From IMG/VR virus record IMGVR_UViG_3300027657_000001: 39,126 bases of DNA; one strand, 5' to 3'. The translations under genes were made by a program, and so were the position numbers. Under the pieces are notes generated by a model. It searched no databases and had not been told where the DNA came from. It worked only from the letters and a program-made list of their open reading frames with translations. Shown here one piece after another: positions 4,994-37,788 of this stretch (the stretch's first letter is position 1; each line of letters starts with the position of its first letter). This DNA comes from a virus.

Positions 4994-5503
4994 TTAGCTA
5001 ACCGGTGACAGGGCCGAAGGATTTTTTAAAGGATGTTCATGCCAACGACTATTAAGATTGCGCAACTCACTCATAAGCTCAAAACGCTGATCATTGATCT
5101 GATCAGGAAGTCTTTTGCTTCCGATGTTTTTGCAGGTCTTTCTATATCGTCTCATGACATCACAATGTGGCTTTTTAATAATAAGATATGGTTCAACTAC
5201 ATCAAGAAGATAATCAAGCATTTCTCCGGTAGCTTGCCAGTTATAAACAGGTCGCGTAAATTTCTTTTTACTCGTCCATCTATAGCGGGAATCACGAGCT
5301 CCTCCAAATGTTTGTTCCAACCACTTAATGAGAATCTCATCGCAACTGGTTACTTTGAGCATGACATGCCATTGCCATCCAGATCCGTATTTACCTTGCT
5401 TAACTCTACCGATGTAGAAGCAACCTTCTCCATCGATGATTCCAGCAAGATAAGCAATTTGAGTGGCAATTTGGTGAGTATGAAAAATAACTTTTTTAGC
5501 CAT
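4994..5503 (-). CDS. LAGLIDADG homing endonuclease (single-motif type), antisense to the intron and capsid gene
   Basis: Motif YLAGIIDGEGCF plus LDYLLDVVEPYLIIKK. ATG at 5503 (MAKKVIF...). The track ORF extends to 5554. Confidence 0.85.
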   Translation of the reverse strand: MAKKVIFHTHQIATQIAYLAGIIDGEGCFYIGRVKQGKYGSGWQWHVMLKVTSCDEILIKWLEQTFGGARDSRYRWTSKKKFTRPVYNWQATGEMLDYLLDVVEPYLIIKKPHCDVMRRYRKTCKNIGSKRLPDQINDQRFELMSELRNLNSRWHEHPLKNPSALSPVS

Positions 5504-5524
5504 ATTGAATCTTTCGTTAATAGC

Positions 5525-5533
5525 AGTATAGCA
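5525..5533 (-). promoter_or_regulatory. Candidate extended -10 promoter (TGcTATACT) for the homing endonuclease gene
   Basis: On the minus strand, tgctatact lies 21 nt upstream of the ATG at 5503. The -35 region is weak. Confidence 0.3.
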
Positions 5534-5723
5534 CATAACGAATGTAAAATCCACGGTGAACGACTAAGTGAGAAAGCAAATGAGATGGAAATAGATAGTA
5601 CAAGAGCTTTTTGTCTCATTTGATGCGATAGTCTGACCTCCGTTCGATAAGACGGAGAGGGAGACCCGAAGAGGTTTCCCCGCCCGAAAGGGTCAGTAGC
5701 CGAAAGGTGAAAGTAACAGAACG

Positions 5724-6362
5724 GTTCTTAACGAAGCGGCAAATAGATTGGGCGTATCCCTTAAGCAAACAGAGGATACTCTTGCTCGTGATATGCTTGC
5801 TTCTACGGCATCGGTTATTAACTGCGTTGGCGGCGTGAACGGAGACAATCCGACTGAAATGACTCGCTCAGACGTAGACCAGGTAGTAAAAGTACTTAAA
5901 GGAAACGATTCTAAACCGTTTCTTTCTGGTATGGCTGGAGAAGACAAATTTGGGTCTGCTCCGGTTCGCTGGGCGTACTTTGCACTTGGAAGTACTGACC
6001 TCATTGGAGATTTGGAGAACGTGTCTGGGTTTATTTCTCAAGCACAGTACCCAAATCCGATGAATGCAATCAGTGATGCTGAGTGGGGTTCTATATCTAA
6101 CCTTCGATTCATGCTGTCTTCAATCGGCTCTAAAACAGCTAATTCTTCTGCAAATGGAAATGACGTATACAACGTCTTCTGTGTTGCACGTGAAGCATAC
6201 GCATGCGTTGAACAAGATGGATATAGCGCACAATTCATCTATCGCCCACCTATCTATGATGGGCCGTTAGCGCAGAACTCTTCTGCAGGGTATAAAATGG
6301 CACAAGTACCTCGAATCTTGAACGATCTCTGGGTACAAAACCTACGTTGCACCCTAGCGTAA
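5724..6362 (+). CDS. Major capsid protein, exon 2
   Basis: The frame is open from 5700. VLNEAANRLGVSLKQTEDTLARDML continues the capsid motif from exon 1. Both exons are multiples of 3 nt, and the spliced product is 316 aa. Confidence 0.85.
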   Translation, partial: VLNEAANRLGVSLKQTEDTLARDMLASTASVINCVGGVNGDNPTEMTRSDVDQVVKVLKGNDSKPFLSGMAGEDKFGSAPVRWAYFALGSTDLIGDLENVSGFISQAQYPNPMNAISDAEWGSISNLRFMLSSIGSKTANSSANGNDVYNVFCVAREAYACVEQDGYSAQFIYRPPIYDGPLAQNSSAGYKMAQVPRILNDLWVQNLRCTLA

Positions 6363-6375
6363 GAAAGGAGAGATA

Positions 6376-7359
6376 ATGGCACAAGGAACTTTATTACAAG
6401 TGGGTAGCTTTACGGCTGATGGATCAAATAAGCGTATTGCTATCAGATCAGACTTTGATTATATCGAAGTCTTTAACCGCACAGCAGCTGCTCAAGCAAC
6501 CGCTGATTTGGGGTATTTTTTCCATTTTCAGCGTGGTGATACTGATGGACGTGGTTACCTAGAAACTAAACTGGGAACGGTAGCAAACGATCCAGTAACT
6601 GTAGGTCAAATTGCTGCTGATAGTGGCTTTTTCCTATTGGATACTTCAGCTAACCCTGTATCTGCGTCTACAGTAGTAGATTCAGCTACTGATGCTACGC
6701 GGCCTGTTGTGTCTACATCAAGCACAGCTGGTCTTGCAGTTGATGATGTTGTTCGTATGACTTTAGTCGGACAAGAAAGCTTAGGCGGCATTGATTTCCA
6801 AATCGATGAAGTTAATTCTGATTCCGACTTTAGAATTAAGTATGTCATGGCAAACTCTCCAGGAGCTGCGGCTACTTCGGGTACATGGCGTAAGATCAAG
6901 TATGACCCAATCTTTTATCCACGCCGTCGCTTTATTGCAAACATTACTGCTGCTTCAAGCGCGGTAGTGAGATGCACTGTTGATCACGGTCTCACCGTTG
7001 GTCAAGAAGTGCGTATGCATGTTCCGGCGGTGTATGAAATGATTGAGATGGACGGATTATCTGGAACTATTACCGCTGTAACTGCAAATGAGTTCACGCT
7101 TGATATCGATTCAAGTGCGTTTACTGCGTTTGTATTCCCACTACCTGCAGATGTTCCATTTACTCCTGCTCTGGTAGTACCGTATGGCATTGATACTGGG
7201 GTGGCTTTAAGCAACTCTGTTGACGATCTTGCTGATGCAACAGAAAACCAAGCTATCATCGGTGTTGATCTCATTGCTGGTGACGATAGTCCAGCTGGTA
7301 ACAACAATGATGTTATTGAGTGGAGAGCTTTTAAAGCTTTCAGTGTAAATAACGAGTAG
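6376..7359 (+). CDS. Virion protein (327 aa) with an internally repeated small beta domain; possible head decoration or fibre
   Basis: Strong SD AAAGGAGAG. It sits just after the capsid gene. Two copies of a G..VR...G..G.I..V....F.L.ID.S.F-like module are visible. Confidence 0.6.
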   Translation: MAQGTLLQVGSFTADGSNKRIAIRSDFDYIEVFNRTAAAQATADLGYFFHFQRGDTDGRGYLETKLGTVANDPVTVGQIAADSGFFLLDTSANPVSASTVVDSATDATRPVVSTSSTAGLAVDDVVRMTLVGQESLGGIDFQIDEVNSDSDFRIKYVMANSPGAAATSGTWRKIKYDPIFYPRRRFIANITAASSAVVRCTVDHGLTVGQEVRMHVPAVYEMIEMDGLSGTITAVTANEFTLDIDSSAFTAFVFPLPADVPFTPALVVPYGIDTGVALSNSVDDLADATENQAIIGVDLIAGDDSPAGNNNDVIEWRAFKAFSVNNE

Positions 7360-7369
7360 TGATGAGTAT

Positions 7370-7393
7370 GGGGCGCTTTCGGGCGTCCCTTCT
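7370..7393 (+). terminator. Weak hairpin plus TTCT after ORF 6376..7359
   Basis: ggggcgc / gcgtccc, 7 bp with one G-U pair and a 6-nt loop. Confidence 0.3.
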
Positions 7394-7405
7394 AGAAGGA
7401 GTATT

Positions 7406-7822
7406 ATGACTAAAATTGCACCAACTGTTGAAAAGCCAAAAAAAGTAAACGCCCGGTTTCAGAGAGAAAAAGATAATCGTCTTGTAAAGGGACGGTTTGT
7501 TTATAATGAACTCCCGGGTGGGGTGCTTGCATTTAACTATTTATTGCATAAAGGTGACAAGCCAATCCGCTATGTCATGCACGACGGGGGCATATACACT
7601 GTTCCTCTTTCAGTAGCGCGACATCTTAATAAAAATGTGGCATACCCCGTATATGACTATATTCCAGGAGAGGATCTGATCGGCGCTCAGGATTCATACG
7701 AAGGAAAAAATATGCGTGTGAAGCGCATGGAAAAACGGTGTTCTTTTGAGCCTCTGGATTTTATTGCAGATGAAGAACTACAGGGCGTAGAGTCAGACGT
7801 AGTATCAGTAGAAACAGTATAG
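7406..7822 (+). CDS. Hypothetical virion-module protein (138 aa)
   Basis: SD GAAGGAG 6 nt before the ATG. Confidence 0.65.
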   Translation: MTKIAPTVEKPKKVNARFQREKDNRLVKGRFVYNELPGGVLAFNYLLHKGDKPIRYVMHDGGIYTVPLSVARHLNKNVAYPVYDYIPGEDLIGAQDSYEGKNMRVKRMEKRCSFEPLDFIADEELQGVESDVVSVETV

Positions 7823-23454: not shown

Positions 23455-24153
23455 TTAGATAATTTTCTTACGGGTGTTCTTTATTTCCATCAAGCGGTTA
23501 CGGGTTTGGTGGTAATGCTCTTTAGGAATGTCCGCCAATGATTGTATTTTGAAATAGTGCAGAATCTCTTCTAGGTATCCCTCCATCGTCGGGTCTTGCA
23601 GTTCGTACTCAAGCTCCTCCCTTTGATCGGTAGAGATCACCTCATACTTCTGGTCAGTGGATTTAAACGTACTCATCTTTCCTTTAACGAACTCTTCTCG
23701 CAATGGTATGTCAGCCACGAATGCATCATCATCCTCAGATTCAGCTACCACGCCAATGAGGCTCGCGTATGCCAAACGTTTCATGCTCGATAGGTATGAT
23801 GTGAGGGTTTGTATTTCTTGTTTGGGAGGGGTGAGTTTTAGCCGTGTTTCAATCCATTGTCCGGACGAGTGGAACAGAATGGTATGGAGCATGGAGCTTC
23901 CATCTTCCAGGTGTTTTATTTGCTGCATGACGGAAAGCCCGTGCTTGGTGAGCGCTGGTCTCGATGCATTGACCACATCAACTAGGTCTTCATAACGGTG
24001 TTGGTAGTATTTATTTTGGTGGGAACGTTTTGCTGTTTGAAACTCTGCCTGTGCTTTTGCGAGGGCTCCCGTGAGTTCATTTATTTTGGTGCTCCGATAG
24101 GAGTTGGTTGGATCCACATCACTCATCAAAAGCTCATCACTTACTCTATCCAT
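23455..24153 (-). CDS. erf: ERF-family single-strand annealing protein, paralog 1 (232 aa)
   Basis: NKYYQHRYEDLVDVVNASRPALTKHGLSVMQ matches the Erf signature region (compare P22 Erf KYKYRSCEDILEGVKPLL). Confidence 0.7.
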   Translation of the reverse strand: MDRVSDELLMSDVDPTNSYRSTKINELTGALAKAQAEFQTAKRSHQNKYYQHRYEDLVDVVNASRPALTKHGLSVMQQIKHLEDGSSMLHTILFHSSGQWIETRLKLTPPKQEIQTLTSYLSSMKRLAYASLIGVVAESEDDDAFVADIPLREEFVKGKMSTFKSTDQKYEVISTDQREELEYELQDPTMEGYLEEILHYFKIQSLADIPKEHYHQTRNRLMEIKNTRKKII

Positions 24154-32355: not shown

Positions 32356-32571
32356 ATGAAGTGGATTAAATGCGGCAATGAATCTGGAAGTTTCTTCAGA
32401 ACTATGGGAAATCCACCCGGACAAAAAGAGTGGTGTTGCTATCACCATAAAGATCTATCAGAGATAGACCTCAATCAGCCGGAGCCTAATTGGGTTAAAA
32501 GGGTATCGTCTGGTAAAAGAATGCCTTTAGGAAGTGGAAGGGTGCTTAGTTTCGATAAGGATGAGGAATGA
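32356..32571 (+). CDS. Hypothetical small protein (71 aa), N-terminus MKWIKC
   Basis: Its 5' 25 nt are 24/25 identical to the start region of the next gene. Confidence 0.55.
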   Translation: MKWIKCGNESGSFFRTMGNPPGQKEWCCYHHKDLSEIDLNQPEPNWVKRVSSGKRMPLGSGRVLSFDKDEE

Positions 32572-32783
32572 AGTGGATTAAATATAAAGATCAGCGCCCT
32601 CCAAAAGAAGGTCGATACCTATGTTCTAATGGTGCTGGATCTCTTGGGATTGGTATTTATCGTACTAACCATTCCTCACGACCGTATGGGGAATGGTTAG
32701 ACGATGGCTGTTGTGGTATGGAATTTAATGCCCCTCCAACGTATTGGTGCGAGCTTGATGAAATAGAAACCCCGAAAGATTAG
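32568..32783 (+). CDS. DUF551-like small protein (MKWIKYKDQRPPKEG...)
   Basis: Family motif plus the conserved junction. Confidence 0.6.
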   Translation: MKWIKYKDQRPPKEGRYLCSNGAGSLGIGIYRTNHSSRPYGEWLDDGCCGMEFNAPPTYWCELDEIETPKD

Positions 32784-32784
32784 A

Positions 32785-33189
32785 ATGAAACAACGTAACG
32801 TATTTCTCTTTCTTATTTCAATATTTGCCACATTTTGCACTAACGCCTACGAGTTCAAGGGCACCCACTATACTGCACAGATGTACGGGTGCGATCATAC
32901 AGCTGTCAGTAAGTGGATCTATGTCTACTCTTATTTTGTTCGGGGGTGTGACGCGTCTGGCGCTACCGTGATCAGAGCTATTCCTCATGTCTTTGAGAAT
33001 GGTTCTGTAACGGCCGTCGCACTCCTTTCTGAGTCTCATGCGAGTATTCATACCTATCCAGAGTTTGATTGCGTCTTCGTTGATTTATTTACGTGTGGGG
33101 ACGACTGTGATTACCGTGAGTTTGAAAAAATCATTGTTGAATGGCTCAAGCCTACTAAGGTGAGAAGAAGGGTGTGGGTGAGAAAGTGA
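32785..33189 (+). CDS. speD: S-adenosylmethionine decarboxylase proenzyme (pyruvoyl, small prokaryotic class) with an N-terminal hydrophobic extension
   Basis: GTHYTAQMYGCD...SGATVIRAIPHVFENGSVTAVALLSESHASIHTYPEFDCVFVDLFTCGDDCD is collinear with the Thermotoga/Bacillus-type enzyme, including the ES self-cleavage site. Confidence 0.8.
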   Translation: MKQRNVFLFLISIFATFCTNAYEFKGTHYTAQMYGCDHTAVSKWIYVYSYFVRGCDASGATVIRAIPHVFENGSVTAVALLSESHASIHTYPEFDCVFVDLFTCGDDCDYREFEKIIVEWLKPTKVRRRVWVRK

Positions 33190-33270: not shown

Positions 33271-33609
33271 ATGAAACGCCAGTATCTTCTCTTTCTGTTG
33301 CTCTTCATCCCCCTCTTTGCCATGGAACATCACTCAATCAAGATCATCTCTTTGGGCAATCTTCCTCTTGCAGGCCATGGCATTGTTGAGTTGTATTATT
33401 TGCTTGGTAGTGGATTCTATTGCATGTCTGAAACTGAAATTATCAAAGTGAATCTGGATGAGAGCTCCAAAACTATGAGACGGCTTCACTTTCGAAGTCT
33501 CGCTTCCGTCACTGATAAATATACTTTACAATTGTATGAGAATGATGATCACGTATTTGTGCGAATGATACCTTTAGACAAGGGTTTTTCTGTGGTAGAA
33601 CGTGAGTAA
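33271..33609 (+). CDS. Secreted small protein (112 aa)
   Basis: GGAGG 4 nt upstream. Signal-like MKRQYLLFLLLFIPLFA. Confidence 0.6.
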   Translation: MKRQYLLFLLLFIPLFAMEHHSIKIISLGNLPLAGHGIVELYYLLGSGFYCMSETEIIKVNLDESSKTMRRLHFRSLASVTDKYTLQLYENDDHVFVRMIPLDKGFSVVERE

Positions 33610-34035: not shown

Positions 34036-34503
34036 ATGAGCGAGTCAAAAAAAAGGCATTTTCAAATGCCAACGGTGAAACGAATCGTTGAGTATTGGAA
34101 TAACAAATTTACTATTTACGATAAAGAATGTTTTGCGTGCGGAAGAATAGCACCACTTCACAGAGCGCATATTGTCCCTTCTTGGATTGAAGAAAATAAT
34201 CACGTATCAAATCTACATCTATTATGTACTATGTGTCATGCTGAATCAGAAGGGCTGAAGCTCTATCAAGAGTGGTTTGATTATAAGCGAAAAAATGAAC
34301 GAAAAGATCCCGTTTCTCATGTTATAGACATGTGGAAAAAGTGCGGTATTCCATTTGATGAAGATGCTAAAGAGTTTGAATTGTATGAAGAGAAATTTGG
34401 AATAGAAAAATACTATAAAGAACTCTTGCCACGCTATATAGAAGAAACGCTAGATAAAGTTTACTACAATAAGCCTTATGCAAAAAAAGAAATGGGGATG
34501 TAG
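34036..34503 (+). CDS. HNH homing-type endonuclease (155 aa)
   Basis: CFACG...LHRAHIVP...NLHLLCTMCH gives the CxxC..H..N..CxxCH arrangement. Confidence 0.8.
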   Translation: MSESKKRHFQMPTVKRIVEYWNNKFTIYDKECFACGRIAPLHRAHIVPSWIEENNHVSNLHLLCTMCHAESEGLKLYQEWFDYKRKNERKDPVSHVIDMWKKCGIPFDEDAKEFELYEEKFGIEKYYKELLPRYIEETLDKVYYNKPYAKKEMGM

Positions 34504-34571
34504 CTCAGTTTGGTTAGAGCGTCCGCCTGTCACGCGGAAGGCCGCGAGTTCAAGTCTCGTCATTCCCGCCA
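34494..34571 (+). tRNA. tRNA-Asp: tRNA-Asp (anticodon GUC) with encoded CCA
   Basis: Cloverleaf folded by hand. Acceptor ggggatg/cattccc, D stem gctc/gagc, anticodon stem tccgc/gcgga with loop ctGTCac, T stem gcgag/ctcgt with loop ttcaagt, discriminator g, then cca. Confidence 0.9.
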
Positions 34572-34585
34572 AGCAAAGGAGTATT

Positions 34586-34861
34586 ATGGTCGATAAAAAG
34601 CTCGTGAAATATAAAGTACTCACAACTCTCAGTGACCTTTCAAAGCCTATAGAGATGGAGCTATATTTTAATGAAAAAGATTTATGGAAGTTTATGGAGT
34701 ATATCCATGCGCTTGAATGGGAAGTGTTAGAATCAAATCTAGTAGCGATGACAGACGAGCATTATACTCTTGCGCTCAATGATGCGTATGGAAAAGGATG
34801 CGAGGAGGGCCGGATGTATGAATGTGAGCATGGTATTGAATCTGGAATAGCGAACAGCTGA
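34586..34861 (+). CDS. Hypothetical protein (91 aa)
   Basis: AAAGGAG 6 nt before ATG 34586. The upstream part of track ORF 34478..34861 reads through the tRNA. Confidence 0.6.
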   Translation: MVDKKLVKYKVLTTLSDLSKPIEMELYFNEKDLWKFMEYIHALEWEVLESNLVAMTDEHYTLALNDAYGKGCEEGRMYECEHGIESGIANS

Positions 34862-34882: not shown

Positions 34883-37279
34883 GTGAACTTAGAAACAAAA
34901 ATAAAATTAGACGCCTTTCGCCCTAGACCATATCAGAAGCAGCCATTAGACGCTCTTTTCAACAAGGGCTATAAGAGAATGCTATTGGTGTGGCCGCGAC
35001 GCGGAGGCAAAGACGTCACCAGTTGGAATATCATCATACGAGCAGCCCTTACGAAAGTAGGGGTATATTTTTACTGTGCACCTACCTACTCACAAGGCCG
35101 CAAGATTATATGGGACTCTATAACAAATCATGCGGTTAAATTTTTAGATTATCTTCCAAAGGAGTTGATAGATCGGAAGAATGACCAGCAAATGAAGCTG
35201 CATTTAAAGAACGGCTCACTCATCCAGATCATTGGCTCTGATTCCTATGATAATTCAATAGTCGGGTCTAATCCTCAAGGGATCATATTTACAGAGTGGG
35301 CTTTGTCTGATGAGCGTGCGTGGCAGTTTGCTCGTCCTATTTTAATGGCGAATGACGGGTGGGCTATCTTCAATTCTACGCCAAGAGGCAAGAACCATTT
35401 ATGGGCTATGTATCAGCTAGCTCTACACTCTCCACAATGGTTTTGTCAAAAGCTTACCATTGAAGATACGGGTCACATTGATATTGAAACAATCCAAAGA
35501 GAACGTGCTTCTGGTGAGATGTCTGAGGATCTTATTCAGCAAGAATATTTTTGCTTTCCAGGTACTCAAGAGGTATTAGCTCTTGATGGATTAAAGTCTA
35601 TATCCGATATAGAAGTTAATGATATGGTCATATCTCATTCGGGAAGACCGAGAAAAGTTTTAAATACTATAAAAAGAGACTATGAAGGCGATCTAGTTAA
35701 AATATATTCATTTGGGTCTCCAGAGCCTCTGATATGTACGCCAAATCATCCTATACGGGTTTTTAATAAGGCCGCTCAAACATATTCATGGAAAAGAGCG
35801 GAAGATATTACCTTACATGATCGTCTCGTGTTTCCTAAAATGCCACTGGGGAAAGTGCAACTTATATCATATGATCTTTGTATGCTTATTGCTTGGTATA
35901 TCTGTGAAGGCTCTTCTTTTAAAAATGGTGTTCAATTTACTGTTGGGGACACAAGAGAAGTGGAACGCATTACGTCTCTTTTGTGTAATATAAATGTTCC
36001 ATATACTCTTTTTGTGTCTTCAAATGGATCATCAACCAATATTGTCGTTTCAAGCACTCAATTAGTTGATTTTTTTAAATCACTTTGTGGAACAGAATCA
36101 AATAATAAGCGCATACCGTTTATATGGATCGCTACGCATGAGATAGATTTTTTTCATGAGCTTATGTGGGGAGATGGCTGTTATTCAGAGCATAACAATT
36201 ATAAAAAATTTTCTTACACAACAACAAGTAAGACTCTTGCTTACCAAGTTCAGCTTCTTGCCAATAGTCTAAATCTTGGATATGCAGCGGGTATAACGAA
36301 CCGAAAGGGAAGTACTGCTACTTTTCCGCACGGTAAAACCTATAAATGCAAAGATTCGTATTCGGTGCAGATCGGCATAAAAGGCTTGAGAGAAAAGCAT
36401 GGTGCCTTAACAAGAGCAAAATACGGAATAGCTGCTCGTATCAAAAATATAGAAAGAGAAAGTCATAAAGGGGCCGTATACAACTTAAAAGTACAATACG
36501 ATGAAAGCTATGTGGTATTAGGACGCTCGGTACATAACTGTAGCTTTGAGATGGGCGTTGAGGGTTCATTCTACGCGAAATATATCGACACTATGAGACG
36601 AGAGGGACGGATTGGAATAGTTCCCCATGAATCTACTTTCCCAGTACATACAGCATGGGATTTAGGTGTTTCAAAAACTGATTCAACGGCGATAATATGT
36701 TTTCAGGTGATTGGTCAGACCATTAAAATAATTGATTGTTATGAGAGTACTAAGCAAGGTTTTCCAGAATATTTGCATATTCTAGAACAAAAAAAGAAAG
36801 AAGACGGATGGATATGGGGAAAGCATTTTGCGCCACATGATATAAAGGTTTTAGAATTTGGTTCTGGTTTGACACGCCTCGATATTGCAAGGAATATGGG
36901 ATTTTCTTTTGAGGTAAGGAGAGATAGGCATAATAATATTCAATCATTACTTCCACCGCTTACTATAATGGATGGTATTGAGCAAGTGAGAACTATTTTT
37001 CCCCGTGTTTGGATAGATGAACAAAAATGCTCTCCCCTTATTAAAGCTTTAGAAAACTATCGAGCAGAATTTGATACTAGAAATAATGTATATAAACGAA
37101 TACCTGTTCATAATTGGGCGTCACACATGGCCGATGCCATGAGATATTTGGCTATAGCAATTAAGTTAACACAAACGCGCAACTCTACGCCTGAAGAGCT
37201 TGAAAAGAGATACCGTGAAGCCGTCTATGGGCCTCAGCACGGAGGATTTTTCGGTGGACACGGTACGCATCAATGGTAG
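34883..37279 (+). CDS. terL: Terminase large subunit precursor (798 aa) containing an intein
   Basis: Walker A-like WPRRGGKDVTS, Walker B-like GIIFTEW, and nuclease-domain acidic motifs (AWDLGVS, FAPHD, HMADAMRYL). GTG start. Confidence 0.85.
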   Translation: MNLETKIKLDAFRPRPYQKQPLDALFNKGYKRMLLVWPRRGGKDVTSWNIIIRAALTKVGVYFYCAPTYSQGRKIIWDSITNHAVKFLDYLPKELIDRKNDQQMKLHLKNGSLIQIIGSDSYDNSIVGSNPQGIIFTEWALSDERAWQFARPILMANDGWAIFNSTPRGKNHLWAMYQLALHSPQWFCQKLTIEDTGHIDIETIQRERASGEMSEDLIQQEYFCFPGTQEVLALDGLKSISDIEVNDMVISHSGRPRKVLNTIKRDYEGDLVKIYSFGSPEPLICTPNHPIRVFNKAAQTYSWKRAEDITLHDRLVFPKMPLGKVQLISYDLCMLIAWYICEGSSFKNGVQFTVGDTREVERITSLLCNINVPYTLFVSSNGSSTNIVVSSTQLVDFFKSLCGTESNNKRIPFIWIATHEIDFFHELMWGDGCYSEHNNYKKFSYTTTSKTLAYQVQLLANSLNLGYAAGITNRKGSTATFPHGKTYKCKDSYSVQIGIKGLREKHGALTRAKYGIAARIKNIERESHKGAVYNLKVQYDESYVVLGRSVHNCSFEMGVEGSFYAKYIDTMRREGRIGIVPHESTFPVHTAWDLGVSKTDSTAIICFQVIGQTIKIIDCYESTKQGFPEYLHILEQKKKEDGWIWGKHFAPHDIKVLEFGSGLTRLDIARNMGFSFEVRRDRHNNIQSLLPPLTIMDGIEQVRTIFPRVWIDEQKCSPLIKALENYRAEFDTRNNVYKRIPVHNWASHMADAMRYLAIAIKLTQTRNSTPEELEKRYREAVYGPQHGGFFGGHGTHQW
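35552..36538 (+). mobile_element. Intein (329 aa) with a LAGLIDADG endonuclease domain inside terL
   Basis: Starts CFPGTQEVLALDG. Has block B CTPNHP and LAGLIDADG-type motifs LIAWYICEGS and ELMWGDGCY. Ends VVLGRSVHN, followed by Cys+1 (CSFEMG). Visibly more AT-rich than the exteins. Confidence 0.85.
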
Positions 37280-37302
37280 GCTCATACTTGGAAGGGAGTA
37301 CC

Positions 37303-37788
37303 ATGAAAAATCTGATGCTTTTAAGTACGTTGTTGGTTTTTTTTTCGCTGTATGGCAGTGAAAGCGATTCTGAAGAGGTAATATCAAAGCATTCAAGCAT
37401 CCGTGCAGATGAAGCAGCAGAGCGGGTGCTCATCTATCTGTTTGGTGAACGTCCAAGCCAAGAGATTAAAGATAAAGTGGCTTTTCATTTCGAGCAGAAT
37501 ATCCACCATGACCAATCTATTTGCGATTTTGTACGCGTTATCGAATCGAGTTCCTCCTCTTCGTCAGATTACGATCAAAGTGAAATGGCCATGCGTAAAT
37601 TAGTTATTAAAGCAGTCCAAGAAGCAATTGAAGAGCAAAAACTTGTTTCAGCCGACTATTTTATGCAGTTAAGTTTGAGAGAAAAAGAAGTTAAAAGGCA
37701 GAAATATAGATTCTATGGAGCCTTGGCCACCGCTCTTACTTCTGTAGCAGGCGTCGTAACCACCGTACTGGCCTATAATGTTTCTTGA
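37303..37788 (+). CDS. Signal-peptide protein with a C-terminal membrane anchor (161 aa), between terL and the portal gene
   Basis: AAGGGAGTACC then ATG. MKNLMLLSTLLVFFSLYG, a poly-Ser run, and C-terminal ALATALTSVAGVVTTVLAY. Confidence 0.6.
   Translation: MKNLMLLSTLLVFFSLYGSESDSEEVISKHSSIRADEAAERVLIYLFGERPSQEIKDKVAFHFEQNIHHDQSICDFVRVIESSSSSSSDYDQSEMAMRKLVIKAVQEAIEEQKLVSADYFMQLSLREKEVKRQKYRFYGALATALTSVAGVVTTVLAYNVS

Follow-up and report, generated by a model that had tools for sequence, protein, structure and literature searches.

Our analysis of a 39,126-nucleotide viral stretch (IMG/VR record IMGVR_UViG_3300027657_000001; the whole stretch is referred to hereafter as the window) suggests that a phage carries the gene of an exported S-adenosylmethionine (SAM) decarboxylase (AdoMetDC). 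The gene, a speD-type open reading frame (ORF) at positions 32785–33189 on the plus strand, encodes with very high confidence a member of the class 1b pyruvoyl AdoMetDC (SpeD) family. The reading that we favor, with a probability of roughly 0.58, is that this protein is a bona fide AdoMetDC with a cleavable Sec signal, which the phage took over from a Chlamydiota-like lineage and has retained as cargo. The phage SpeD differs from all characterized members of the family, phage SpeDs included, in its export signal and in the lack of a linked spermidine synthase gene (speE). To our knowledge, AdoMetDC has been regarded as cytoplasmic in every system studied, and SAM chemistry outside the bacterial cytoplasm would be unusual.

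Family, fold and catalytic site of the phage SpeD

The speD ORF is complete (ATG to TGA, 134 amino acids), and its product would be the pre-proenzyme of a class 1b pyruvoyl AdoMetDC. The Pfam profile search matched it to PF02675 (AdoMet_dc) with E = 4e-25 and 88.7 bits (cutoff 25), residues 28–133 aligning with profile positions 1–106 of 107, and the NCBIfam equivalog for adenosylmethionine decarboxylase, TIGR03330, scored 84.2 bits against a cutoff of 75.65. PHROG 3125 (E = 2.6e-23) and the PDB sequences of Thermotoga maritima SpeD (E = 2e-15) were also matched. These matches, which lie far outside what chance would give, bear out an earlier sequence-only reading that had placed a SAM decarboxylase here and whose quoted sequence proved exact. 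The AlphaFold2 model of the 134-residue protein, built on 120 homologues, reached a mean predicted local distance difference test (pLDDT) of 93.5, with a helix at residues 2–17 (where pLDDT was lower) followed by the SpeD fold, and the alpha-beta-beta-alpha sandwich of SpeD was recovered in this predicted structure. When the model was compared with 1VR7/1TLU by Foldseek, the match had E = 1.8e-12 and a root mean square deviation of 1.1 Å over 108 columns at 32% identity, and the top of the ranking read 1VR7, 1TLU, 1TMI and 2III, then eukaryotic AdoMetDCs. Altogether, every sequence and structure feature that we checked for a class 1b AdoMetDC was found in the phage protein.

The catalytic site is equally complete. 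When the sequence is aligned with T. maritima SpeD, its predicted mature beta chain comprises residues 22–83 (62 amino acids; 32848–33033, plus strand) and ends at Glu83; it is followed by Ser84 (codon 33034–33036, plus strand), the predicted autoprocessing serine that would become the pyruvoyl cofactor and that aligns with T. maritima S63. The predicted alpha chain (residues 84–134; 33034–33186, plus strand) contains His89 (33049–33051), Pro92, Glu93 and Cys104 (33094–33096). The motif LLSE83/S84HASIH89TYPE93...DLFTC104G (the slash marking the cleavage site) fits T. maritima E62/S63, H68 and C83 column by column, and the beta chain left after the predicted removal of the signal has the same 62 residues as that of T. 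maritima (residues 1–62). Glu83, Ser84, His89 and Cys104 were invariant across the 120 best homologues, which were taken from a collection of 5.8 billion proteins; across the clade of signal-bearing SpeD, Pro92 and Glu93 do not vary either, and F24, G26 and H28 vary little or not at all. In T. maritima, S63, H68 and C83 are needed for self-processing and catalysis (PMC10407285). The sequence-only reading was thus right that the self-cleavage site and the catalytic residues are retained: E83/S84, H89 and C104 all align with their T. maritima counterparts, and none has been lost. When compared with T. maritima TM0655 (1TLU/1VR7) and Aquifex aeolicus SpeD (2III), the phage protein has the same fold, the same Glu/Ser site, the same His and Cys, and the same HT(W/Y)PE motif. 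However, these two cytoplasmic enzymes begin 4 residues before G-x-H, whereas the phage SpeD has 21 more residues and no speE in its genome.

The N-terminal extension as a probable export signal

The conserved domain begins at about residue 22–26, some 4 residues ahead of G26, thus leaving ~21 extra residues at the N-terminus (the sequence-only reading had counted about 22 and had likened them to a signal peptide, a character that our scoring supports). The predicted Sec signal peptide, for cleavage by signal peptidase I, covers residues 1–21 (32785–32847, plus strand) and reads MKQRN/VFLFLISIFATFC/TNA before the YEF of the mature protein, i.e., an n-region MKQRN (+2), an h-region VFLFLISIFATFC and a c-region TNA with cleavage between A21 and Y22; the uncharged run is 14 residues long, and small residues occupy positions −3 and −1. 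Note that all signal calls, in the query as in the homologues, come from our own heuristic scoring of the n-, h- and c-regions.

The extension is best regarded as a conserved export signal because of the comparative evidence, which is decisive: an equivalent n/h/c signal was found in ~110 of the 120 best homologues, with an AXA-like site 0–8 residues before Y-x-F-x-G-x-H. The signal-bearing homologues span 40–80% identity, and in their alignment the signal region keeps its hydrophobic character while its sequence varies. Linkers of 8–30 residues between the signal and the domain are tolerated in close phage relatives, and one relative (P0009/L089) carries a lipobox, LLPLHG/C, in place of the Sec-type site. 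Among the top 150 representatives clustered at 50% identity, ~30 have a signal-like N-terminus; two multi-repeat proteins that also ranked high there (P0375 and P0424) were set aside as repeat artefacts with no catalytic motifs. Two other signal types were considered for the query and rejected. A lipoprotein signal (signal peptidase II) does not fit, since the query reads A-T-F-C18, with Phe at −1, against the lipobox [LVI][ASTVI][GAS]C, and a twin-arginine translocation (Tat) signal does not fit either, the n-region MKQRN having no RR pair (motif S/T-R-R-x-F-L-K). From this comparison of sequences, it is highly probable that the N-terminus of the phage SpeD would function as an export signal. 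An exported AdoMetDC had seemed odd to the sequence-only reading; the signal-like character stands, but the oddity is not peculiar to the phage, since it extends to most of the nearest homologues.

No start other than the annotated one is plausible, because the ATG of speD lies 1 nt past the stop of the upstream ORF 32568–32783 and because the first in-frame ATG, GTG or TTG beyond M1 is M33, within the first conserved beta-strand. An alternative start codon was accordingly rejected: none occurs in frame ahead of M33, and M33 itself would remove that strand. The earlier statement that there is no alternative in-frame start therefore holds as far as M33. The view that the protein is a cytoplasmic AdoMetDC whose extension is a non-functional or mis-annotated leader is, for the same reasons, the least probable of the alternatives considered here. 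In its favor stands a single point, namely that all characterized AdoMetDCs are, as far as we know, cytoplasmic, and against it stand the lack of an in-frame start between M1 and M33, the translational coupling of the start to the upstream ORF, and the conservation of the extension in ~110 homologues over 40–80% identity.

The signal also sets the protein apart from the SpeDs of isolated phages. A tblastn search found 121 INPHARED phage records that match speD at 28–40% identity, and most of the matches listed begin at about query residue 22–28; none of the isolated-phage SpeDs that we examined carried an export signal. Two apparent N-terminal extensions, in S-TIM54 and S-SKS1, were rejected, as the tblastn matches that reach upstream run into the upstream gene. 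The SpeD of cyanophage S-PM2 has the catalytic motif in common with the query but is without the N-terminal extension. It is a validated AdoMetDC, while other phage homologues decarboxylate arginine or ornithine (PMC9992855, PMC10407285); neither of these papers mentions signal peptides.

Probable substrate and link to spermidine synthase

SAM is the probable substrate of the exported phage SpeD, as judged from three lines of evidence, namely the diagnostic proline of the central motif, the ligand-contact positions and the genomic context of the sister group. Regarding the motif, the query has Pro92 in H89-T-Y-P92-E93, so that SESHASIHTYPE keeps the AdoMetDC proline. This proline of HT(W/Y)PE is conserved in all bona fide AdoMetDCs and is not conserved in the arginine decarboxylase derivatives, and the ornithine decarboxylases (SpeDC) are marked by four residues (Gln, Thr, Phe and Tyr) in the central region (PMC10407285). 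The central region of the query agrees with that of the T. maritima and S-PM2 AdoMetDCs position by position, save for a W-to-Y change. In addition, Phe70, Thr76 and Glu93, probable ligand-contact positions, correspond to T. maritima Phe49, Ser55 and Glu72 and to human Phe223, Ser229 and Glu247, and the SpeD of S-PM2, a validated enzyme, likewise has Phe, Ser/Thr and Glu there. Ligands stack on Phe7 and Phe223 of human AdoMetDC (PMC5377238).

The genomic context of the sister group is the strongest of the three lines. The signal-less sister homologues are 43–48% identical to the query over the whole mature domain, with the core LLSESHASIHTYPEH...FVDLFTCG identical, and their speD is immediately followed by speE or fused to it (Melainabacteria, Pirellulales, Planctomycetia and Cyanobacteria; L008–L078). 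These operons and fusions thus differ from the query in having no hydrophobic N-terminus and in being genetically coupled to spermidine synthase, whereas the core is the same. Over the 79 classified loci, speE was present within 6 kb in 19 of the 27 signal-less loci versus 1–3 of the 52 signal-bearing ones (Fisher p = 3e-9). As an example of fusion, the Melainabacteria form is one protein of 446–454 residues with AdoMet_dc and Spermine_synth domains; single polypeptides of AdoMet_dc and spermidine synthase (446–521 amino acids) were observed in L075, L076 and L078 (Melainabacteria/Obscuribacterales) and in P0181, P0188, P0205 and P0217. Since the signal-less sisters are linked or fused to speE, the exported subfamily would descend from canonical speD-speE pairs.

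Further support comes from genomes in which both enzymes appear to be exported. In a Chlamydiae bin (L028, a contig of 3.1 Mb), the signal-bearing speD (5962–6405) is convergent with speE (6451–7488, minus strand), and the SpeE homologue (345 residues) has its own predicted signal peptide, MSFRSLLHIAFCLCICPLTAS/LIY. On another large contig (L155), one GNAT-like gene stands between a signal-bearing speE (5001–6035, plus strand) and a signal-bearing speD. A search with the L028 SpeE homologue found around 20 clusters of signal-bearing SpeE homologues with 340–360 residues (among P0135–P0158), the contigs reaching 3.1, 2.3 and 1.6 Mb, while ordinary SpeE (~300 residues) has no signal; on two other large contigs, the signal-bearing speE stands alone beside rpoC. 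The pairing of exported speD and speE is hard to explain otherwise than by the two enzymes working in one extracytoplasmic compartment, and therefore supports decarboxylated SAM (dcSAM) as the product. Note that the gene between speE and speD in L155 (6017–6745, minus strand) encodes an acetyltransferase-like protein of the GNAT type without a signal, which by its motif could be a polyamine acetyltransferase. Neither agmatine-processing genes (speB, aguAB) nor speY were present in the Pfam gene calls of three chlamydial neighborhoods, and the three Chlamydiota contigs had no conserved polyamine neighbors of speD. Neither an exported SpeD or SpeE nor a chlamydial SpeD came up in the full-text literature that we searched, but its coverage is incomplete and this is absence of evidence only.

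Distribution of homologues and possible host of the phage

The taxonomic scan covered one genome per prokaryotic species and returned at least 591 relatives, of which the best 80 were considered for taxonomy. Among these 80, the matches that span the N-terminus belong overwhelmingly to Chlamydiota bins (Rhabdochlamydiaceae, Parachlamydiaceae, Simkaniaceae and unclassified Chlamydiae), and those with other labels are a few Verrucomicrobia and one Dependentiae. GTDB places Chlamydiia inside Verrucomicrobiota, so some of the homologues labeled Verrucomicrobia may be chlamydial. No hydrophobic segment was found in the homologues of Pirellulales, Planctomycetia, Melainabacteria, Cyanobacteria, Omnitrophica, Anoxychlamydiales or giant-virus bins, and members of the signal-less subfamily occur in IMG/VR giant-virus bins and in viral contigs of 190–360 kb (L099–L103, L146). 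In a neighbor-joining tree, which was computed from BLOSUM distances without support values and is a rough one for orientation only, the clade of the phage family and the giant-virus sequences adjoin a large clade of Melainabacteria and of members of the Planctomycetes-Verrucomicrobia-Chlamydiae superphylum, Chlamydiota among them. Two environmental metagenome bins titled 'Chlamydia trachomatis' (L010 and L034) carry a signal-bearing SpeD of the environmental type and are probably mislabeled.

The link to Chlamydiota relies on the taxonomy of the full-length hits, on the composition of the window and on the NCBI name of one cluster member ('adenosylmethionine decarboxylase [Rhabdochlamydiaceae bacterium]'). 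The GC content (0.42) and tetranucleotide usage of the window correlate best with Chlamydiota loci (mean r 0.55 vs 0.15–0.46 for the other multi-locus groups), which is weak evidence given the limited panel of loci compared. A Chlamydiota host is accordingly a tentative assignment, for which we would give slightly less than even odds. Many Chlamydiota bins have the exported-type SpeD on the chromosome, in ordinary housekeeping neighborhoods, and because the signal is a hallmark of the large clade of Chlamydiota bins and of the related phages, the phage most likely inherited an enzyme that was already exported.

Proposed mechanism and alternative explanations

Under the favored reading, the unfolded chain would be exported by the Sec pathway and cut by signal peptidase I after Ala21, and would then fold and dimerize outside the cytoplasm. 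The autocatalytic cut between Glu83 and Ser84 would convert Ser84 into the pyruvoyl cofactor, after which the enzyme would turn SAM into dcSAM, whether in the periplasm or beyond it. This product could then feed an aminopropyltransferase, either an exported spermidine synthase or the enzymes of the eukaryotic host cell, and the phage would gain a higher polyamine supply during infection. Such an extracytoplasmic function is feasible because the cofactor of a pyruvoyl enzyme does not have to be imported. A bacterium living within a eukaryotic cell would find SAM and putrescine there, which fits the confinement of the signal-bearing form to Chlamydiota and Dependentiae and the occurrence of the signal-less form in giant-virus bins. 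For a phage that keeps speD across its family, a higher polyamine supply is the likely benefit. The polyamine reprogramming put forward in the sequence-only reading hence remains the best idea, with its site moved outside the cytoplasm in light of the exported SpeE pairs of two chlamydia-like genomes. As a precedent for a polyamine that acts outside the cytoplasm, speD2/speE2 (PA4773/PA4774) of Pseudomonas aeruginosa reportedly provide, according to work by Johnson et al. in 2012, a surface spermidine that protects the outer membrane; there the enzymes are said to be cytoplasmic with the product at the surface, whereas here the enzymes themselves carry export signals.

Several observations weigh against the favored reading. 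Extracytoplasmic SAM is normally unavailable to a bacterium that does not live within a eukaryotic cell, and Cys104 must stay reduced in an oxidizing compartment. The phage clade stands beside, and not inside, the Chlamydiota clade in the rough neighbor-joining tree, and no prophage copies were found, all 413 portal-homologue clusters lying on contigs of ≤38.6 kb. A direct search for speE, the one polyamine gene for which the window (partly annotated otherwise) was searched directly, found none in the window or in the related phage loci, and most of the signal-bearing chlamydial loci are also without a neighboring speE. An 'anomalous' SpeD without SpeE is elsewhere a flag for arginine or ornithine decarboxylase, and the arginine decarboxylase derivatives (SpeDA) are hard to separate from true AdoMetDCs by sequence (PMC10407285).

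The last observations also form the case for a rival that we consider unlikely, though the most serious of those weighed here, in which the protein is an exported pyruvoyl-dependent arginine or ornithine decarboxylase (SpeDA/SpeDC-like) whose role in the periplasm or vacuole would be to form agmatine or putrescine, or to provide acid resistance by using up protons. A speD that stands alone in the window, in the related phages and in nearly all signal-bearing chlamydial loci repeats the very context in which these activities were discovered, i.e., a stand-alone phage homologue without SpeE, and SpeD homologues of this kind, phage ones included, are often arginine or ornithine decarboxylases according to the Michael laboratory (PMC9992855, PMC10407285), with SpeDA hard to tell from SpeD by sequence (PMC10407285). 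Amino acids would also be likelier than SAM as an extracytoplasmic substrate. In contrast, the proline whose loss is reported for SpeDA is kept in the query and is invariant in the clade, the central motif is of the same type as in validated AdoMetDCs, the closest homologues without a signal share an operon with spermidine synthase or are fused to it, and an exported spermidine synthase accompanies the exported form in two genomes.

An active AdoMetDC tethered to the outer face of the inner membrane, with the hydrophobic N-terminus as an uncleaved anchor, appears improbable. Uncharged runs of up to 20–21 residues in some homologues, and Cys18 within the h-region of the window protein, would suit an anchor, but the run of the query, like the median one, has 14 residues, too short for a typical membrane span, a small-x-small site lies 0–8 residues before the domain in 110 of the 120 homologues, and one relative has a lipobox instead. 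Even less credit can be given to a counter-defense enzyme, which would remove SAM so that SAM-dependent restriction and other defenses fail, as the sequence-only reading had proposed. Phage enzymes that destroy SAM do exist and offer a general analogy; Chlamydia trachomatis takes SAM from its eukaryotic host cell, and if the host of the phage does likewise, a periplasmic decarboxylase could in principle intercept such SAM. However, export takes the enzyme away from the cytoplasmic SAM pool, and a cytoplasmic SAM drain is unlikely because the enzyme would be exported before folding and self-activation, so that this part of the earlier proposal is not supported and appears very improbable. In addition, the same exported enzyme is chromosomal in many Chlamydiota bins with housekeeping neighborhoods, and pyruvoyl AdoMetDCs are slow (family kinetics, PMC10407285).

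Phage genome and genes around speD

The whole window is a phage genome, with a P22-type portal, a large terminase (TerL), virion and tail proteins and two Erf recombinases. The C-terminal part of the P22-type portal lies at 40–885, and since the portal is split over both ends, the window represents a permuted, nearly complete genome of ~40 kb. TerL (34883–37279, plus strand) is 798 amino acids long versus 451–469 in related phages, and it is interrupted by an intein that includes a LAGLIDADG homing endonuclease (Pfam matches Intein_splicing, residues 243–552, and LAGLIDADG_3, residues 425–474). The two separate genes of Erf-family single-strand annealing proteins are at 23455–24153 and 24559–25065, both on the minus strand. 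An HNH endonuclease ORF (34036–34503, plus strand) overlaps with its 3′ end the start of a tRNA-Asp(GTC) (34494–34571, plus strand), and the mechanically called ORF 34478–34861 is doubtful since it covers this whole tRNA.

The small ORFs upstream of speD (30993–31232, 32356–32571 and 32568–32783, all on the plus strand) start with MKWI, the first of them with a Pfam match to DUF551, and small ORFs of this type also precede speD in the related phages L088 and L089. Promoter and terminator matches near speD, such as a moron gene would have of its own, did not exceed the shuffled expectation. The gene that adjoins speD downstream (33271–33609, plus strand, 112 amino acids) encodes a putative signal-bearing protein with the N-terminus MKRQYLLFLLLFIPLFA/MEHH; it had no Pfam or PHROG match, is not kept beside speD in the closest relative (L088), and was rejected as a SpeD paralogue on the basis of a negative hhalign comparison. 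Another signal-bearing ORF (37273–37788, plus strand, 171 amino acids, likely start M11) is found between TerL and the portal, with a predicted signal MKNLMLLSTLLVFFSLYG/SE and no known family, and its homologues lie directly beside the speD homologue in L090 and L092, between TerL and the portal. These arrangements suggest that speD and the two ORFs form a cassette of exported cargo near the packaging genes, ORF 33271–33609 being possibly part of the same cargo as speD. The place of speD in this cluster further suggests that its product acts at the cell envelope or in the compartment around it, and not in the cytoplasm.

The related phages in IMG/VR (L088–L098) each have 13–19 window ORFs in common (6 for L090), and all of them carry speD beside TerL and the portal; in several, speD lies between these two genes together with other small signal-bearing ORFs. 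They constitute a family of phages of 36–40 kb with a P22-type portal (podovirus-type), which has diverged to ~40% identity and in which the decarboxylase gene is kept near the packaging module. A megablast search with 6 kb found no close relatives among isolated phages, and the best isolate match of the portal was Pseudomonas phage phiR18 at 28% identity. None of the 80 genome loci carrying a SpeD homologue had a second gene in common with the window. In L097 (9381–9791), and also in L098, we observed a second signal-bearing paralogue with the SpeD fold two genes past the active SpeD (hhalign probability 97.5%). The L097 copy has neither the processing Ser nor the catalytic His or Cys, and would thus be an exported, catalytically dead paralogue reminiscent, by analogy, of the trypanosomatid AdoMetDC 'prozyme'.

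Biological significance

Altogether, the signal-bearing SpeD proteins make up a large, apparently undescribed clade and the signal-bearing SpeE proteins a smaller one, and the signal sets the phage gene apart from the signal-less speD of cyanophages. In a broader and rather doubtful scenario, chlamydia-like bacteria (and Dependentiae) would perform part of their polyamine synthesis outside the cytoplasm on SAM and putrescine of the eukaryotic host cell, through an exported AdoMetDC that some lineages combine with an exported spermidine synthase, the ~40 kb phages that infect them would have captured the exported decarboxylase, and giant viruses of the same protists would carry the signal-less form. 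If this scenario holds, the window would count as one of the earliest tailed phages to be linked to Chlamydiota. The conserved cargo gene also offers a handle with which to trace the hosts of an abundant but uncultured phage family. The two signal-bearing clades would imply that the polyamines of the periplasm, the vacuole or the host cytosol are produced or altered by some host-associated bacteria and by their phages, which opens the question of how obligate intracellular bacteria obtain spermidine.

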